A stretch of 64,000 nt of DNA from Nitrosopumilus sp. Its GTDB lineage: Archaea > Thermoproteota > Nitrososphaeria > Nitrososphaerales > Nitrosopumilaceae. Location: the NCBI GenBank assembly GCA_965214775.1, contig OZ243974.1, forward strand, positions 1,984,001-2,048,000. Reading direction: 5' to 3'. This document shows, piece by piece, positions 1-47,562 of the stretch. Position 1 is the stretch's first letter; every line of letters starts with the position of its first letter. The notes under the pieces were generated by a model. It did not search any database and had not been told where the DNA came from. It saw only the letters and a program-made list of their open reading frames with translations. The position numbers were made by a program, and so were the translations under genes.

Positions 1-337
1 AACAGTGCAAGGCCCATGGTGGCCAGGACACACGTGGCAGCCAAGATGGTCAGGATCATCTGGTCCATGCTTATGACAAAGACGCCATACTCCGGACACG
101 ATCCCAAGACATACAAACTCAAGCTGGCCAGGGCAGAGGCCGCTGCTGCTGCTGCTGCTACTGCTACTGCAGCACCCAAGGTCAGGGAGAAAACAACCAA
201 GTAACGCGCACTCGCATGCAGGGAAAGGATCCCCCTGTACCCAGCGTAAGCTATAAAGCGGCCCATATTAAACTAGGCGTGGATTAGAGAGACATAGTCC
301 GCCACCGCTAAAGGGCCCGGGTGTTTTAACATAGATG
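1..337 (+). mobile_element. IS110/IS1111-type element, 3' part (transposase C-terminus to 204, downstream non-coding end, subterminal IR, core TG at 336-337)
   Basis: C-terminal peptide nearly identical to the 37522-38652 transposase; 205-337 matches the reverse complement of 37388-37521. Confidence 0.9.
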
Positions 338-12353: not shown

Positions 12354-12473
12354 CAGTCTTCCCAGAAGTAACCCAGAAAACATCCAAGATTTGAAACAAA
12401 TCAAATTACGATGCCTGCAGATTCACCCTACGTCATCTGTACATTCATGAATCGCGTACTTCTGGGAAGACTG
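12354..12473. mobile_element. ISH3-type MITE (120 bp)
   Basis: TIR CAGTCTTCCCAGAAGTA at both ends; homologous to 28619-28739 and 36233-36353. Confidence 0.9.
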
Positions 12474-28618: not shown

Positions 28619-28739
28619 CAGTCTTCCCAGAAGTAATCCGGAAAACGGCTCCGGATTTGAAGCAGACCAAGTTATGACACCTGCAGGTTCACCCGTCGCC
28701 ATTTGCACAGTCATGAATCACGTACCTCTGGGAATATTA
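28619..28739. mobile_element. ISH3-type MITE, right TIR degenerate
   Basis: homologous to 36233-36353. Confidence 0.85.
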
Positions 28740-35446: not shown

Positions 35447-36112
35447 TTATTCCTGAATCTGGCTTACCATCTCTTTGAACTCGCCAAGCTTGTTGCTGAC
35501 TTCATCTACTCCGGCAAGAATTATCTGTTCTGGACTGAGTGCCCCCGTTGATTCTATTGTGAGAACCCGCTCGTCTTCTTTTTCTGCCTCAGTCAGCGTT
35601 GAGACATTTGAGGAATTCCATTTGGCATGTTCTGTTCCTCTTCCTAGCCTTGCATAGCATTCCACCTTGATTCTTTGTCCTGGCGCAAGCTGTACAATTG
35701 GAATCTTTTCAGAGATTGGCTTGATGGAATCATCCTCAGAAGACAGTTCGTTTGAAAGAACCGTTCTGGTGACATCCGAGTCTCCGGAATCGAGCACCAG
35801 CATCACCTTGCAGTTTGAGCACCCTGCCTCGCTTTGACACTGGCATTTTGAAGGCTCATCAAACCTGCCCAGTTCTGTCTTTAATGGAACCAGCCCCAAC
35901 CTGTGCGCAAGTCCCTCGTCTGCCAAAACTGAGGTGTTTTCAATAATGTCTACAGTATCAATTGCAAATACCGGAACGCCGTTTAGACAGACTCGCCTGA
36001 GTGCGTTTGCATACTGTAACGGTATGCCCTTTAGCTTTACAGCAATCTTTTGATTATCTTTGCTAATTACCTCCAAGGACGACAAATCTTGAACAAAATC
36101 TTCAAAATCCAC
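35447..36112 (-). CDS. rpoD: RNA polymerase subunit D (Rpo3); true start possibly about 36085
   Basis: ANALRR, AHRLGLVP, Cys cluster, HAKW. Confidence 0.93.
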   Translation of the reverse strand: MDFEDFVQDLSSLEVISKDNQKIAVKLKGIPLQYANALRRVCLNGVPVFAIDTVDIIENTSVLADEGLAHRLGLVPLKTELGRFDEPSKCQCQSEAGCSNCKVMLVLDSGDSDVTRTVLSNELSSEDDSIKPISEKIPIVQLAPGQRIKVECYARLGRGTEHAKWNSSNVSTLTEAEKEDERVLTIESTGALSPEQIILAGVDEVSNKLGEFKEMVSQIQE

Positions 36113-36137
36113 ATAAAAATCTAACTGGTTTTTCAGT

Positions 36138-36228
36138 GTAAGAGTTTACCCCTCAGGCGACGCTGCTGGCCGGAGCCTTCATGATCACGCCTGCCACGTC
36201 GTATCTTGGGGGAGGGGTAAACTCTTAC
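36138..36228. mobile_element. 91-bp IS66-type MITE (GTAAG family)
   Basis: 17-bp TIR GTAAGAGTTTACCCCTC; 8-bp TSD TTTTCAGT. Confidence 0.92.
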
Positions 36229-36232
36229 TTTT

Positions 36233-36353
36233 CAGTCTTCCCAGAAGTAACCCGGAAAACGGCTCTGGATTTGAGGCAAACCAAATTATGACGCCTGCAG
36301 ATTCACTCGCCGCCATCTGCACAGTCATGAATCACGTACTTCTGGGAAGACTG
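36233..36353. mobile_element. ISH3-type MITE (121 bp)
   Basis: TIR CAGTCTTCCCAGAAGTA at both ends. Confidence 0.92.
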
Positions 36354-36397
36354 AAAGAATAACTAGCTTTATTAGGCTAGGCTAAACTCAGAGGTCA

Positions 36398-36973
36398 ATG
36401 ACGAGTATGACAAAAACTCTACTTTTCGCATCACTGATAGCTGCAATGTTATTGCCGTTTTCAGGAATGCAGGCAGTAGATGCAAAAGAAAGCAAAGTAG
36501 TTGATTGGTCTGAATCACAACAAATGGCTTCTACCACACCAGGTGATTCTACTCGAACTGCGTCAGGCGGTTCTGTCTATGTATATTGTAACCATGAAGC
36601 ATCAATGTCAAACAAGTGTTATGGTTGGGATAATGGTGGTGACTTTTACTATTCTACACCATATACATACAAAAATGTAGATTCCTGTAACAGTTATACT
36701 TGTGCTGATCTAGATTACTATCATAGAGGCGACTCCATAATCAGCCATAATGGGTACGCATACACATTCGAATCTTCAAGTTATTATACCTGTGCAGTTG
36801 ACCTTGGATTATGTACATCACCATTAAAAGGTTACAACAACTATGAGACAATCCATCATAATAACATTCCAACAGGTGAACCAATCAATCACATAACTAC
36901 ATACAAATACGAACGACAAGGTGAAACAATATCTATTCTTGTAGTTCAACTAATGACTGAGGGATATAGTTAA
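36398..36973 (+). CDS. secreted Cys/Tyr-rich protein
   Basis: leader KTLLFASLIAAMLLPFS shared with 4453-5187; low GC. Confidence 0.8.
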   Translation: MTSMTKTLLFASLIAAMLLPFSGMQAVDAKESKVVDWSESQQMASTTPGDSTRTASGGSVYVYCNHEASMSNKCYGWDNGGDFYYSTPYTYKNVDSCNSYTCADLDYYHRGDSIISHNGYAYTFESSSYYTCAVDLGLCTSPLKGYNNYETIHHNNIPTGEPINHITTYKYERQGETISILVVQLMTEGYS

Positions 36974-36991
36974 CCTCATTATTTTTTTATC

Positions 36992-37213
36992 ATGTTATCT
37001 GACAAAGAAAAACTGGAATGGTTTTCACATTTTACAAAATCCCTGTCTGCAATTAAATTAATGTGTACTGATTCTGTATATTCTAAAGAGGACATACTCA
37101 CTCAGATTGTCTCCTTGGAACAAGATCTAAAATCTATTGATTCAGGATATCTGCCTTCTGGTCCCAAACAGACTGTACAATGGCCAAAAAATGAAACCAG
37201 CACTCAAAATTAA
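36992..37213 (+). CDS. small hypothetical protein
   Basis: 73-aa ORF directly downstream of the secreted protein gene. Confidence 0.6.
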   Translation: MLSDKEKLEWFSHFTKSLSAIKLMCTDSVYSKEDILTQIVSLEQDLKSIDSGYLPSGPKQTVQWPKNETSTQN

Positions 37214-37521
37214 ACCAATATCTAGCATCAGTCTTCCCAGAAGTAACCCAAAATAGCCAATTTTGACCGAAACAGATCAATTAGGGCAGTCCTAGAAGGT
37301 ACTCATGCCTTACCAAAAGAACCAACTGAGACGTGATGCTCTTAACAACCCGCGCATATATCAAGATATCCTAAAGACCAGTCTTCCCATCTATGTTAAA
37401 ACGCCCGGGCCCTTTAGCGGCTGCGGATTGTGTCTCTCTGATCCACGCCTAGTTTAATATGGGCCGCTTTATAGCTTACGCTGGGTACAGGGGGGATCCG
37501 TTCCCTGCATGCGGCTGCGTG

Positions 37522-38652
37522 TTACTTGTCTGTTTTCTCCCTGACCTCGGGTGGCATCTTGGATGCTGCAGCTGCTGCTGCTGCGGCCTCTGCCCGGGCC
37601 AGCTTGAGTTTGTACGTCTTGGGATCGTGTCCGGAGTACGGCGTCCTTGTCACGAGCATGGACCATACGATCCTGATCATCTTGGTTGCCACGTGCGTCC
37701 TGGCCACCATGGGCCTTGCGCTGTTCCTCTTCTTGGATCTTGCATGGATCCTTCCCATCCTCTCGTCGTATATGGCGGCCGTCCGCACAGTCTGTAGCAT
37801 CGCCCAGTTGCACCTGCGGTTGGATGTCTTTCTCATTTTGCCGTGGTACTCCCTGTCGCCGGACTGGTGAACCGTAGGACACATGCCGAACCACGCAACA
37901 AGCTTGCCCGGGGTCTTGAACCTGGCAATGTCCCCGATCTCAGATACCAGCAGCATGGCCGTAAACGAGTCGATTCCCGGAATGCTCATCAGGATCCTCG
38001 CATCCTCGCTGACGCTGGCCTGCGCCGCTATCCTTGTCTCGATGTCCGCGATCTCCTCTGTGATCTGCCTGACCCTTCTGGCATGCACGCCGAGAACCGC
38101 ATCATCGTTTGGGTCGCCAAGATTCAGGGCGAACAGCTGCCCGAGTCCCTTGTTGGAGTACACGTGCGACGAGTCGATCCTCTCGTCATACCTGTCCAGG
38201 AGGCTGTGGATCTGGTTGATCACGGCCGTCCTGTCCTGCACGAGGCCGATCCTGCAGCGCATCAGCTCCCTGACGCTCCGGAGTTCGGGCGGTGCCACGT
38301 AGCACTCGGGAACCATTCCGGCCCTCAGGGCGTTTGCAAGCTTTCTTGCGTCGATCGGGTCCGTCTTTACGTCCATGTCGGAGATTATCCGCATCTTGTA
38401 GGTGTTGGCAAGCTTGATTGGTATTCCCGCGGACTCGAATGCCTCGTAGGTCTTGAGCCACATGTTGCCCGTGGACTCGCAGACGGCCTGGCAGTTCTTT
38501 CCGCCGTAACTGAGCTTTGCCTTCCTGGCAAACATGCCTGCCTCTCTGGATGTGTTCTCGTATGACGTCTCTTCCAGGATCCTCTTTTTGTCGTCCATAA
38601 TGCACGCTACGCATTTTCTCTTTCCAATGTCTATTCCTATGCTGTATTGCAT
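37522..38652 (-). CDS. IS110-family DEDD recombinase
   Basis: GIDIGK, CESTG, KTDPIDA, SIPGI, PTVHQSG. Confidence 0.93.
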   Translation of the reverse strand: MQYSIGIDIGKRKCVACIMDDKKRILEETSYENTSREAGMFARKAKLSYGGKNCQAVCESTGNMWLKTYEAFESAGIPIKLANTYKMRIISDMDVKTDPIDARKLANALRAGMVPECYVAPPELRSVRELMRCRIGLVQDRTAVINQIHSLLDRYDERIDSSHVYSNKGLGQLFALNLGDPNDDAVLGVHARRVRQITEEIADIETRIAAQASVSEDARILMSIPGIDSFTAMLLVSEIGDIARFKTPGKLVAWFGMCPTVHQSGDREYHGKMRKTSNRRCNWAMLQTVRTAAIYDERMGRIHARSKKRNSARPMVARTHVATKMIRIVWSMLVTRTPYSGHDPKTYKLKLARAEAAAAAAAASKMPPEVREKTDK

Positions 38653-38683
38653 CTTTTCTCGCTTTCCTCTTTTTGGTGGATCA

Positions 38684-38790
38684 GAGGCTGCACACATCTA
38701 TCAGCACGCCGTGGTGCACGAACACTGCAGCTCGGAATTACCGCATTCAGAAGTCAGCGCGCGGGGCGCATGGGAAGACAGCGGTTGATC
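38684..38790 (-). ncRNA. predicted bridge/seek RNA of IS110 family 1
   Basis: target loop GTCTTCCCA + ACTTCTG; donor loop GTGTTC + ATAGATG; each enclosed by a stem with an internal hairpin. Confidence 0.8.
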
Positions 38791-40151
38791 CACACCACCA
38801 CCGCTACGGGCCCGGGCGTTTTTAACCCGTGTTCAGAAGTACCACGTCAAATTATCCCCGGCTCGAAACAATTCAAATAATGATGCCTGCATATCCGCAT
38901 GTCGTTTCTTGCACCTCCACGAGTCGGTTACTTCTGGGAAGACTGAAGACCGTTGGCGACGGCATGGCCCCGTGCATCAAGACATCAGACAAGCACAACG
39001 CCATCTATGCTACAGACGACTTTATCAGGTGCCTGACGCGCGCGGCCGTATCCAACAGGCAGGTGGCAGGCTGCACGATGTCTGCACGTGACGTGCCAGC
39101 GGCTCCTGGAATGCCCCGCAATCCCACCGACGAGTGGATCCGCAGCGTCGCCATAAGATCCAAGCCCGGCCAGATCCAAGGCTGCCTTGCAGAAACCGTG
39201 GGCCGGCAGCTGAACCAGCTGAGGGATATGGGGATGATCACAAATGGCCAAAAGACGGATGCGGCAATAGACATGCACCTGATACCGCGCTATGACAAAA
39301 AGTACGGTAGTGAGCTTGTACGCTCCAAGAAGAAGAGCGGGACGATAGTCTGAGCGTTACATCACCATACAGTGCATCGTAAAGCACTGCCGCCTTGTGC
39401 TGGGAGCACTGCACATGCCGGCCCTTGAGGATACGGCCGATTTCGTGCGTAAAATCATCGATTCTGCACGCCGCACAGGCGCCGATCTTGGAGTCGTGAT
39501 GCTGGACCGCGAGTTCTTTTCGGCCGCAGTCATCTCCAAGCTGGATGCGGCCGGTGTCAGATGTATCATACCGTGCAAGAACACGGATGCAGTCGTTGCC
39601 ACCCTCAACGAGAATGGCGACGTGAAAAAAAGAAGGGAGGTCAAATCGGTCATATCCGGCACCACAAAGTCTGCACGGTACACGATGGTCATCACAAAGA
39701 GAAGGAAGAAGAGATCAGGCAAGACCGATGTGGAGAAGCTGCCGGCGCACGAGCGGCTCATCGGATTTGCAACCAACGTGCCCGGAATAGATCCGAACGA
39801 GTACAGCCGCAGGTGGGGGATCGAGACTGGATACAGGATGATAGAGAACGCAAGGGTCAGGACCCACAGCAAGAGCCCGGTCGTAAGGATGCTGTACTTT
39901 GTGTACTCGGCTGCGGTCTTCAACGCGTGGGTCATGGCAAACGCGATGATGAGAAACTTTACGGGGATCGTTACAGAGGATCCCCTGATCACCCAGCAGT
40001 GCCTCAATGACGTGATCAAGCGTGGTATGTCGGACTATAGGATGCTGCCCCAACCCCCTCCACCGGTGCCTCCATGAGTTACTTCTGGGAAGACTGGGCA
40101 AGCGAAAACCTTCAAATAATTTTTAATCCTAGTATGTTTAACAGGTTTCAT

Positions 40152-41319
40152 ATGCCAGAAAATCAAAAATTAAACCATGAATCCATAGTGGAAATGGAAA
40201 AGAGGGCCCGCAGGATAAGATCCAGCATTGATGAAATAGTGATGGAGGCAGACATGACAGGATCCGACTTTGAGGAATTAAAAAGCATGTTCGGGGAAAT
40301 AAGAAGGAAGATGGAGGGGATAAGATCGAATATCAAGATAATGAGAAGAGAGGCCGGCGTGGCAGGGCTTGACTTTGAGGAAATGATGACACATACTGGC
40401 ATGGCAGGATTCAGCTTTAAGAATGCAAGAACGAGTATCAGCCGGGTAAGATCCTGCGTTGAGGAGGCAGAAAGGGGGAGCGGCGTGGAAGTACTCAGGG
40501 TCAAGAAATTGTTAGATCATATCAGCACGATAAGATCTTACATTGGGAAGCATGGAGGAAGTGCCGACATGACAAGATCTGTCTTTGATCTGTTGGAAGT
40601 ATGGACTGACAGATTCAGAGCTCACTGCGTGGGAGTCAGAGAGGCGGTCAAGGGGTTGAGTGTGCCGGCAGAGTTGGGAATATCTGTCTACAGGAAAGTG
40701 GGAAAGGAGGTGGAGACGGCAAAGGCTGTGTTCAAGAAACTGGTAAGCATGTCTTATAAAACCGCCAAAAAGCCGCCACCATGGGGTACACAGAGATCTG
40801 ACTCGATGGAGGATGATCTTGAGCTGATAATACATGAACTCGGCGAACTAGAAAAGTATACAGGTGCAATGAGAGATAACTTTGAGGAATCAAAAGGATA
40901 CATCCTCAGATTACGATCTGAATTCGAGGAGATGAGAAAGAGCGCCTGCAGTGCAGGATCTGGCCTGCCAAAGCATTTGGGGAGACACGAGGATCCGCAG
41001 GCACAGGGCGGGGTCGGCAGGCAGGGATCCGTCCACGTACGAGCTGCGGCCCGAAAGCCTCCGGGTCGTGATCAGGGATACCGACATTGTCCTCAGAATC
41101 AATCCGAAGGGGCACCTCGACCCCATCCGCCGCCGGATTCTTTCACTGGCAGACGAGATCAGGACGGGGCTGAAGAGAATGGAGGCAGAAGGGGCCACGA
41201 TACCAGAGCGCGAGGACGTTGTAATCGCAAAAAACCGCGAAATCCTAGAGGCCGCCCTGGTCGACTTTGACTACGACGCCCATGCCGGGGATCCGCACCT
41301 GCCGCCTGCCACACTCTAG
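40152..41319 (+). pseudogene. coiled-coil hypothetical protein, probably frameshifted near 40960
   Basis: heptad-rich ORF that continues in another frame (40951-41319). Confidence 0.5.
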
Positions 41320-46483: not shown

Positions 46484-47562
46484 TGATCAGCGTAGGAATA
46501 GACGTACACAAAAAGACATGCGTTGCAGCAGTAAAGGATGACTCTGGCAAGCTGCTAGAGCGATCCAAGTTTGAGAACAGCGTTTTGGCAACAACGAATT
46601 TTGCAACATATCTCAAGGAACAATACTGCGGACAGCTGCCAATAAAGGCAGTATGCGAGTCCACTGCCAACTACTGGATTATCGTACATGACACGCTTGA
46701 GGACTGCGGGATAGACACCGTGCTGGTGCATCCGGCAAAGGTCAAGGTGATAGCGCACGCCAAGATAAAGGACGACCGCGTAGATGCAAATATACTTGCC
46801 GACCTGCTCAGAGCAGACATGCTGCCAGAGTCGTTTGTGCCTGACAAGCACTACAGGGACCTCAGAATGCTGGGCAGGACCAGAACCGGCAAGACGGCAG
46901 AAGCCACCAGATGCAAGAACAAGATACACGCCATACTTGCAAAGTATGACTATGACCTGCCCACGCACAGCACGTTTACGATTTCTGCCATACAGCACAT
47001 CCAAGACGGGATAAAAATGTCAGAGATTGACGCGGCAACTGTGAAGATGTACCTTGATGACATCAAGAGGATACAGGATCAGATAAGGGATCTGGAGCGC
47101 AGCATTGCCTCTGTATCCGAAAGCGATACGAGGGCCAAGACGATTATGACCATGCCTGGAATAAGCCATGTCATTGCACTGACGATAATCTCTGAGATAG
47201 TCGATGTCAAGAGGTTTGCCACTCCAGAGAAGCTCGTCTCGTATGCAGGGCTGACTCCCTCGCGCAGGGACAGCGCAGACAGACACAAAGGAGGCGGCAT
47301 AACAAAGCAGGGATCCGTGTGGCTGCGCCAGGCCATGGTCAACTCGGCCACAGTCGCAGTACGAAACGACCCAAGGCTTGGTTCGATATATGAAAGGATA
47401 GGAAAGAGACGTGGATGGCAAAAGGCAAAGATTGCAGTTGCAAGACACATGCTGGAGATAATCTGGCACATGCTGACAACCGAAGAGGAGTACCGCACTC
47501 AGAACAAGGCTCTCACGCAGAGAAAGTATAAGAGGATGCATCGCATAGCAACATTGTCCTGA
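46484..47562 (+). CDS. IS110-family DEDD recombinase
   Basis: GIDVHK, CESTA, KDDRVDA, TMPGI, AGLTPSRRDS; GGAGGTGA ribosome-binding site upstream. Confidence 0.93.

Follow-up and report, generated by a model that had tools for sequence, protein, structure and literature searches.

A predicted bispecific guide RNA in the 5′ leader of an IS1111-type IS110-family element from Nitrosopumilus and its match to the termini of other mobile elements

Described RNA-guided elements and the archaeal locus

In bacterial members of the IS110 family of insertion sequences (IS), a guide RNA named bridge RNA or seekRNA has been shown to be required and to be reprogrammable (Durrant 2024; Siddiquee 2024). Bridge RNAs have been predicted for most ISfinder members of the family, in which IS110-group elements have long left ends and subterminal repeats of 2–3 bp, and IS1111-group elements long right ends and repeats of 7–17 bp (Durrant 2024). 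In IS1111-type RNAs the match to the top strand lies 5′ of the match to the bottom strand, while in the IS110-type element ISEc21 this order is reversed (Siddiquee 2024). According to the same source, the long non-coding region of IS1111-type elements is usually downstream, with exceptions in ISMtsp17, where it is upstream, and in ISHvo10 and ISAcp5, which have it on both sides; IS3-family elements are the target of ISEc21, whose relative ISMch6 has been naturally redirected. In this work we analyse an element of the family found in a 64,000-nt stretch of DNA from the archaeon Nitrosopumilus sp. (assembly GCA_965214775.1, contig OZ243974.1, positions 1,984,001–2,048,000 of the forward strand). 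The whole stretch is called the window and its positions are used throughout; genome coordinates are marked G000:C1 or C1. An earlier note, made from the letters of the window, had described the element as an archaeal bridge RNA system programmed against the terminal inverted repeat of an ISH3 transposon family.

Our analysis leads to a similar reading. Judged by its sequence features, the locus very probably is an intact IS1111-type IS110-family element whose recombinase gene has in its 5′ leader a bispecific RNA guide some 124 nt long, of the bridge RNA or seekRNA kind. The features are collected in the table.

Table. Features of the element, of its predicted guide RNA and of the surrounding mobile elements (window positions unless marked C1)
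Feature	Position	Strand	Remarks
IS110-family element (c1)	37390–38835	−	1446 bp with one CA/TG core copy counted
Target half-site GTCTTCC and core CA	37381–37387 and 37388–37389	+	core TG and right target GGAAGAC in element orientation
Core CA and target half-site GAAGT	38834–38835 and 38836–38840	+	left target ACTTC and core TG in element orientation
Right-end subterminal inverted repeat TTAAAACGCCCGGGCCC (plus strand)	37396–37412		6 nt inside element end TCTATG
Left-end subterminal inverted repeat TTAAAAACGCCCGGGCCC (RNA sense)	38808–38825		8 nt inside element end
DEDD recombinase, 376 amino acids	37522–38652	−	starts MQYSIGIDIGK; start ATG at 38652, as in homologues
Bridge/seek RNA, predicted, 124 nt	38673–38796	−	upstream of recombinase; from RNAalifold, pair counts and covariance model
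Closing helix P1	38793–38787 with 38682–38676	−	5′ strand GTGGATC, 3′ strand GATCCAC
Target arm stem	38784–38781 with 38744–38741	−	
Donor arm stem	38731–38727 with 38691–38687	−	
5′ target guide GTCTTCCCA	38771–38779	−	reverse complement of core and right flank, 9/9; would pair with recombinase-sense strand
3′ target guide ACTTCTG	38748–38754	−	identical to left flank and core, 7/7; complementary to bottom strand
5′ donor guide GTGTTC	38720–38725	−	reverse complement of G and left-end start AACAC, 6/6
3′ donor guide ATAGATG	38695–38701	−	right-end terminus ATAGA and core TG, 7/7
Right-end segment GTGGATCAGAG (RNA sense)	37436–37446	−	complementary to P1 3′ strand and 3 nt more
ISH3-like IS, about 1.3 kb without passengers	37229–40096	+	outer inverted repeats CAGTCTTCCCAGAAGT at both ends
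Miniature inverted-repeat transposable element (MITE), same inverted-repeat family	37379–38945		121 bp once the insert is removed; CAGTCTTCCCAGAAGT at both ends, inverted
Broken DDE_Tnp_1 open reading frames of ISH3-like IS	38829–39353, 39397–40077		
3′ part of second copy (c2)	1–335	+	enters window from left; right end ...CATAGA-TG, then GTTACGT
Five RNA remnants, sister subfamily	C1:586930–587051, 1348695–1348814, 1310611–1310721, 558074–558191, 2341020–2341140		

The element, its insertion site and the predicted guide RNA

The stretch 37390–38835 is an IS110-family element by its DEDD recombinase domains and profile scores. Specifically, the recombinase matches the Pfam families PF01548 (DEDD_Tnp_IS110, 3.9e-26) and PF02371 (Transposase_20, 3.1e-21), and it reaches 232.5 bits on the NCBIfam model NF033542, named 'IS110 family RNA-guided transposase' (cut-off 140), with the whole model covered. 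Residues D8, E59, D98, D101 and S264–G265 are invariant across 33 homologues. The C-terminal motif reads GMCPTVHQSG, which fits the IS1111 pattern GL-P----S(t)G (Siddiquee 2024) except for M in place of L. The closest proteins outside the host genome are 55–59% identical, and the named ones among them are IS110-family transposases of Nitrosopumilus. GC content is 57% in the element versus 47% in the genome. The earlier note had assigned the DNA to an archaeal host, and this agrees with a gene for archaeal-type RNA polymerase subunit D encoded near the element and with relatives whose named records are mostly Nitrososphaeria or Bathyarchaeia.

On the plus strand the element begins with TCTATGTTAAAACGCCCGGGCCC and finishes with GGGCCCGGGCGTTTTTAACCCGTGTT-CA, the core standing at 38834–38835. 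Read in element orientation, the insertion is ACTTC-TG / AACAC ... CATAGA / TG-GGAAGAC. The CA/TG core is the sole duplication and terminal inverted repeats are absent, as is characteristic of the IS110 family; excision of the 1446 bp in silico restores the uninterrupted 14-mer target. Both ends carry long subterminal repeats of 17–18 bp which are mutually complementary (TTAAAACGCCCGGGCCC versus GGGCCCGGGCGTTTTTAA; 12/13 in an automated test). The non-coding ends measure 183 nt on the left and 132 nt on the right.

Three mobile elements are nested at this place: the ISH3-like IS contains the MITE and the MITE contains the IS110-family element. Ends of the ISH3-like IS at 37231 (plus strand) and 40081 (minus strand) equal those of intact copies elsewhere in the genome (C1:1783276–1784572, 1301 bp). 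Transposase of such an intact copy has NF033541 (ISH3) as its best NCBIfam match (E = 7.3e-36) and DDE_Tnp_1 as its only Pfam match. The inverted repeats of this family measure 16 bp or more, and a target duplication of 5 bp surrounds the MITE; target duplications in the ISH3 family are 4–5 bp long. The name 'ISH3' used earlier for the target is right as to the best-matching model, but the score of 123.8 bits lies below the curated cut-off of 225, so that 'ISH3-like' is safer. What had been said of the insertion itself was found again in the sequence. The element splits a terminal inverted repeat of the MITE with the core CA repeated, and its removal gives a 121-bp MITE flanked by the 5-bp direct repeat AAGAC (37374–37378 and 38946–38950).

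The 14-mer target GTCTTCCCAGAAGT has nine further perfect matches in the window (12356, 12458, 28621, 36235, 36338, 37231, 38930, 40081 and 59911), where 0.01 would be expected by chance (100 shuffles). These are the nine unoccupied targets that the earlier note had listed, each at its listed position. Genome-wide there are 84 perfect copies, and CA precedes 83 of them. As many as 44 copies form 22 inverted pairs of MITE size (about 121 bp), and two further pairs bound intact elements of 1.3–1.4 kb. Within the window, two more 121-bp MITEs of the targeted family are intact (12354–12473 and 36233–36353), and single repeat ends lie at 28621 and 59911. It is a reasonable inference that an insert placed 11 bp inside the repeat, cutting its outer tip from the rest, should disable that end of the ISH3-like IS or MITE. 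Insertion of IS4321/IS5075 is reportedly argued to disable the ends of Tn21-type transposons.

The predicted guide RNA lies between the left end and the recombinase start. R1, a covariance model built from the upstream alignment of relatives, scores 109.7 bits at 38673–38796 on the minus strand, its sole match in the window. The RNA would consist of two arms joined by the closing helix. On the minus strand the target arm reads ACCGC-T-GTCTTCCCA-T-GCGCCCCGCGCGC-TG-ACTTCTG-AAT-GCGGT, in which GCGCCCCGCGCGC is a hairpin, and the donor arm reads GCTGC-A-GTGTTC-hairpin-TG-ATAGATG-TGT-GCAGC. The half-site at 37381–37389 matches the 5′ target guide 9/9. Re-reading of both strands found the previously quoted letters and coordinates of the element, of the target split and of the guide regions exact, including two claims: that the upstream target loop matches both insertion flanks (9/9 and 7/7), and that the second stem-loop matches the joined element ends (GTGTTC 6/6, ATAGATG 7/7).

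These matches suggest the following mechanism. The first loop would read the insertion site, its 9-nt 5′ strand pairing with the recombinase-sense strand of the core and right flank and its 7-nt 3′ strand with the opposite strand of the left flank and core. The second loop would in the same way read the two ends of the element itself, which meet at the core once the element has been excised as a circle. The predicted circle junction is ...AACCCGTGTT-CA-TCTATGTTAAAAC..., which contains ...CCGTGTT-CA-TCTATG.... The recombinase would act at the 2-bp core, which is TG in element sense and CA on the plus strand, and exchange strands there; entry would duplicate the core alone. The target loop of the copy in the window, here c1, spells the outermost part of the repeat common to the ISH3-like IS and the 121-bp MITEs, and the element would therefore land 11 bp inside this repeat. 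For RNA production, recombinase binding, circle formation and strand exchange at the TG core we infer the behaviour from the bacterial systems.

A conserved fold of the upstream region is evident among relatives. One genome per species was scanned, which gave 225 relatives, and the best 80 loci were analysed; in these 80 the taxa are mostly Nitrososphaeria (Nitrosopumilus, Cenarchaeum, Nitrosocosmicus, Nitrososphaerales) and Bathyarchaeia. The upstream regions of the relatives can be aligned well, and RNAalifold applied to this alignment recovers the closing helix together with the basal stem and the hairpin of each arm, with 14 of 23 pairs kept through two-sided changes. When a 24-pair structure is laid over 38 archaeal sequences, 93.3% of the cells are paired versus 32–52% with the partners slid by 1–3 columns; 15 of the 24 pairs show changes on both sides, and none of 500 shuffles reaches the observed values. 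Moreover, R1 matches 78 of 83 sources, every match standing just upstream of a recombinase on the same strand. In the five sources lacking a match, the protein match starts late or at the edge of the locus. The fold is thus conserved with compensatory changes across the 38 archaeal relatives.

Two further features could bear on the making and folding of the RNA. The left subterminal repeat has an A/T-rich core, TTAAAAAC, at 38818–38825 (minus sense), about 25 nt upstream of the start of the RNA model. A TATA box in archaea stands at about this distance. The distance from this core to the RNA start varies among relatives, and the motif recurs inverted in the right end. The A/T-rich core may act as a TATA box, and the RNA would then be made from integrated copies too, beyond the circle. 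In the right end, 10 of 49 loci carry a complement of at least 9 nt to the P1 3′ strand, against 17 of 1760 mismatched pairings; its sequence is lineage-specific and covaries with the closing helix in several lineages. Such a segment could form an alternative or long-range helix and switch the fold in transcripts that run across the circle junction.

Guides and insertion sites within the genome and among relatives

Search of the genome with the element (blastn) gave a second full copy, c2, a 414-bp left-end fragment (L082) and three short right-end fragments. The copy c2 (G000:C1:1982891–1984335) is 90.9% identical to c1 (37390–38835). It sits between other flanks, ACATA-TG ... TG-GTTACGT, and has other target guides, GTATAACCA and ACATATG. 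The two RNAs differ at 8 of 124 positions and five of the differences fall within the 16 target-guide positions (hypergeometric p = 8.5e-4); two are in a hairpin loop, one is in the junction and none is in the donor guides. The 3′ target guide of c2 matches its flank 7/7.

The c2 site, GTAACCATATGT, occurs 21 times; in every case it forms the beginning of a repeat, and the DNA upstream of the repeat varies. This repeat is the left end of IS-B, another IS110-family IS of about 1376 bp whose transposase reaches 235.6 bits on NF033542. We considered whether the c2 target is a separate 68-bp landing pad for several ISs. This was rejected: full IS-B copies are homologous from base 1 to about 1376, and the 68 nt are the left end common to the IS-B/IS-C group. 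GTAACCA flanks each of the three right-end fragments, and the truncated copy L082 has the c1-type left flank ACTTCTG.

Places found by R1 in this genome number eight: c1, c2, the L082 fragment and five degenerate left ends that no recombinase gene follows. In four of these five fossil remnants the 3′ guide equals the left flank, 7/7. Two of the remnants (guides TTTGTTG and CGTTATGCA) sit 10 nt inside TAGTTTGTTGCATAAC, a 16-mer that occurs 54 times in the genome and forms the perfect inverted repeat of a 140-bp MITE (C1:1896360–1896500 region). Three guide specificities in one genome thus all aim at termini of other mobile elements. It may be that the guide variants form a network which disables the termini of ISH3-like ISs and MITEs, of another IS110-family IS and of a second MITE.

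Some observations on the neighbouring families are added here. Guides similar to those of the two remnants (xTTGTTG) are carried by the Nitrososphaerales relatives L012, L021–L024 and L029. The genome has 42 matches to NF033542, 11 of them above the cut-off. Copies of IS-B (C1:2401541–2402916 = L084:142–1517, and 20 more places) have variable left flanks and no obvious fixed target, which is odd for the family. Their downstream non-coding region has AUAGAUAA, which matches the right end of IS-B itself, and weak R1 matches (E = 0.12 and 0.24); this region hints at an IS1111-type RNA. IS-C, a third IS110-family kind, has a full copy at 46492–47487 on the plus strand of the window (C1:2030492–2031487; 248.5 bits on NF033542), and its protein starts MINVGIDVHKKRC, as read in the copy at C1:548985.

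The same question was put to the relatives, whose guides were taken from the covariance-model alignment. The right end was placed where the 7-nt donor guide had one exact match, and no more than one, at the distance expected, as was the case in 49 of the 73 parsed loci; removal of three duplicates left 46. The right flank has at least 5/7 matches to the 5′ target guide in 28 of the 46 non-redundant loci versus 9 of 1666 mismatched pairings, and 7/7 in five loci, the mean being 4.52 matches versus 1.74 for mismatched pairings. Left-end placement from the 5′ donor guide alone is unreliable, with pairing often of 4–5 nt. The left end was set instead by matching the right-end subterminal repeat in reverse complement (at least 10/13 in 31 of 49 loci; 25 after removal of six duplicates). 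Left flank and core match the 3′ guide at 6/7 or better in 22 of 25 loci and at 7/7 in 14 of 25, the corresponding counts for mismatched pairings being 1/498 and 0/498. In another genome, L043 has the c1 guides and is inserted in a related MITE with flanks ACTTT-TG / GGAAAAC, that is 12/14 of the guide-predicted target.

Near-identical copies with differing guides are found together in single genomes: L054–L062, L015–L019, and L031–L041 with L074 (one genome plus that of L041). Guides such as CCATGTG, CCAAGTG, CCAGATG and CCAAATG are examples. Relatives present in several copies with varied guides suggest rapid guide diversification in active lineages. Two relatives, L042 and L045, are on contigs labelled as bacterial metagenome-assembled genomes (Gemmatimonadales and Kaiserbacteria), for which binning errors or transfer are possible. 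The comparison of flanks with guide-predicted sites, which the earlier note had proposed as a check, thus turned out in its favour: guides and sites change together, both between c1 and c2 and among the archaeal relatives. Guides track insertion sites within the genome and across archaeal relatives.

Alternative readings and their weight

Several results weigh against an intact element with a bispecific guide RNA. The structural claim rests on comparative data, because the single-sequence fold of the 183-nt left end is no more stable than shuffles (z = −0.06) and Rfam 15 gives zero matches over 36000–40500 at E up to 1. Among the relatives, the right flank falls below 5/7 in 18 of 46 loci and is 0/7 in L006, L036 and L070 (in L070 the match is offset by 2); L013/L052 and L064/L040/L051 match poorly, and the left end of L003 is mislocated. 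The boundaries used in these tests come from donor-guide and subterminal-repeat matches, which are predictions of the same model, and the controls share these boundaries. The 5′ guide of c2 matches just 6/9 (TAACCA), the three mismatches facing DNA outside IS-B that varies from copy to copy. Finally, there is a single full copy of each guide variant, and the c1 target class is occupied by one full and one truncated copy versus 84 free sites, so that recent activity is unsupported.

This last point leads to the rival that we take most seriously while still holding it unlikely, namely that the RNA-guided family is real but this copy is a resident fossil: after a single entry into the MITE it would have stopped moving and would no longer act on ISH3-like elements. 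Young duplicates are lacking, since either guide variant has one full copy and the two copies are 91% identical; the 84 perfect targets are empty, and the genome also has the truncated copy and five degenerate remnants of the RNA alone. Over 37100–39100, the contigs of four DNA runs contain neither the circle junction nor the empty site, a weak point as contigs can miss rare forms; the only joints in them (37373 to 38946 and 37250 to 38912) go back to paralogous copies of the ISH3-like IS and the MITE. The state of the element speaks against a fossil. The recombinase reading frame is full length with all conserved residues kept and the whole NCBIfam model covered, the four guides are perfect versus flanks and ends, and both subterminal repeats are intact. 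Moreover, relatives occur as near-identical multi-copies with different guides (L054–L062, L031–L041), so the lineage is active.

It is very improbable that the upstream structure is a mere leader or regulatory element of the recombinase mRNA, with the protein picking the site and the loop matches being by-products. It is true that the RNA stands in the 5′ leader directly before a ribosome-binding-like stretch, and that long subterminal repeats exist which a protein might read. A protein-only model, however, fails to predict loops that change with the flanks, as is seen in c1 and c2 and in the 46 and 25 loci of the two flank tests, and the stems stay paired through compensatory changes. The RNA of bacterial members, as cited above, is required and reprogrammable (Durrant 2024; Siddiquee 2024). 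Another reading concerns purpose: the host could keep the element as a brake on transposons, the guides at IS and MITE termini being a defence-like control and not purely a safe-site strategy of a selfish element. Three specificities do hit the ISH3-like/MITE repeat, the left end of IS-B and TAGTTTGTTGCATAAC of the 140-bp MITE, and each insertion splits a sequence that the machinery of the host element must read. We consider this reading improbable, as occupancy is tiny (one full and one truncated copy versus 84 free sites for c1; one copy and three remnants versus 21 free sites for c2) and abundant repeats are the safest landing for a selfish element, as has been argued for bacterial targeting of repetitive extragenic palindromic (REP) sequences, attC sites and Tn21-type repeats.

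The reading of an intact, RNA-guided IS1111-type element can be extended. In the extended form, Nitrososphaeria and Bathyarchaeia would share an architectural class in which an IS1111-type RNA has moved to the 5′ leader and folds around a three-way junction, the A/T-rich core would have the TATA role, the right end would serve the fold switch and the guides would make up a terminus-disabling network. That all of these hold together we regard as rather doubtful.

Significance and comparison with known systems

Bridge RNAs and seekRNAs, archaeal IS110 recombinases and surveys of bridge-RNA diversity are already known, and bacterial precedents exist both for targeting the ends of other transposons and for natural redirection. 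The mechanism is not new, which limits the surprise. We found no description of bridge RNAs in Nitrososphaeria in the literature, where the supplementary tables of Durrant 2024 and Siddiquee 2024, which give predicted RNAs for ISfinder entries, may list archaeal relatives; in a survey of thaumarchaeal mobile elements (PMC6563490) the term 'IS110' is absent from the main text. What is new here is an archaeal clade that combines IS1111-type polarity and repeats with an RNA in the 5′ leader, a closing helix and a clean reprogramming pair. It carries RNA-guided recombination beyond the bacterial model elements into a well-populated archaeal lineage, with ammonia oxidisers among its members. The pair c1 and c2 is a natural experiment: two 91%-identical copies, whose RNA differences are concentrated in the target guides, sit in two different predicted sites. 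The mixed layout, with IS1111-type order and repeats and the RNA upstream, bears on how RNAs move between element ends in evolution, and mobile elements that aim at the ends of others are relevant to the shaping of IS and MITE loads in such genomes. Programmable insertion tools are scarce for archaea, and this compact recombinase with its guide of 124 nt, which comes from mesophilic or moderately thermophilic hosts, is a candidate for one.

Guide order, long repeats and the C-terminal motif make the element IS1111 type, a placement that rests on features. More specifically, the guide that is complementary to the top strand comes first in the RNA and the one for the bottom strand follows, as in IS1111-type RNAs. 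With respect to the IS110 group represented by IS621 and ISEc21, the repeats differ (17–18 bp) and the guide order is reversed. The RNA lies upstream of the recombinase, which is not the downstream position of the IS1111 group, and published exceptions exist to that position. The best match to the recombinase among plasmid records is a Haloarcula IS110-family gene with 34% identity.

Close to the archaeal element are IS4321/IS5075, IS1111-group elements that insert in the 38-bp inverted repeats of Tn21-type transposons. They likewise have a DEDD recombinase and long subterminal inverted repeats, and likewise take a fixed position and orientation in the terminal repeat of another transposon, with the 2-bp core alone repeated. 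The precedent had been cited in the earlier note, and it can be read directly on a plasmid record (L085), where IS4321 splits the Tn21-type repeat as ...GCTTTAT-TT / element / TT-CCGTTTTC.... Its target guides come in the order AAAACGGAA (reverse complement of core and right flank) and TATTT(T) (left flank and core), and next stand the donor guides: CTCATCAA, which is the left-end start in reverse complement (7/8), and ATAGATT, which joins right end and core. Guide order and donor logic are thus the same as in the archaeal element, and both right ends (L085:2180–2200 and 37390–37395) terminate in ATAGA before the core. The differences are that the IS4321 RNA is downstream of the transposase while the archaeal RNA is upstream, that the core is TT in place of TG, and that IS4321/IS5075 are on bacterial plasmids while the present element is on an archaeal chromosome. 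The IS4321 protein is 22.5% identical to the archaeal recombinase over 65% of the query. R1 gives no significant match in IS4321 or in IS-B (best E = 2.7 in the IS4321 locus), and RNA sequence homology is undetected. ISHvo10, one of the exceptions in the place of the long non-coding region, is an element of Haloferax and hence archaeal.

In IS621 the RNA likewise lies in the left end, upstream of the recombinase, and has target and donor internal loops with a strand for either DNA strand and with the core included; the first target guide likewise has 9 nt. Also similar are the preference for repeated genomic elements and the tolerance of some guide-target mismatches (Durrant 2024). The subterminal repeats of IS621 are 2–3 bp long while the archaeal ones are 17–18 bp, and the core is CT while the archaeal one is TG (Durrant 2024). 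The archaeal arms are joined by the closing helix into a three-way junction, an arrangement not known from IS621. The earlier note had equated the two layouts. The two-loop principle of target and donor stands, but the polarity does not, as the guide order and long repeats are IS1111-type; the layout equals that of IS621 only when it is read on the plus strand of the window.

For an upstream or two-sided non-coding region within the IS1111 type, ISMtsp17, ISHvo10 and ISAcp5 are precedents (Siddiquee 2024). ISEc21 and ISMch6 likewise have an upstream RNA, a target inside other ISs and redirection by a few base changes in the guide (Siddiquee 2024). Unlike the archaeal element, ISEc21 targets a coding region and not a terminus, and its guide order is IS110-type (Siddiquee 2024). 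Compared with the pair ISEc21 and ISMch6, both guide variants described here are found in one genome and both of their targets are present in many copies.

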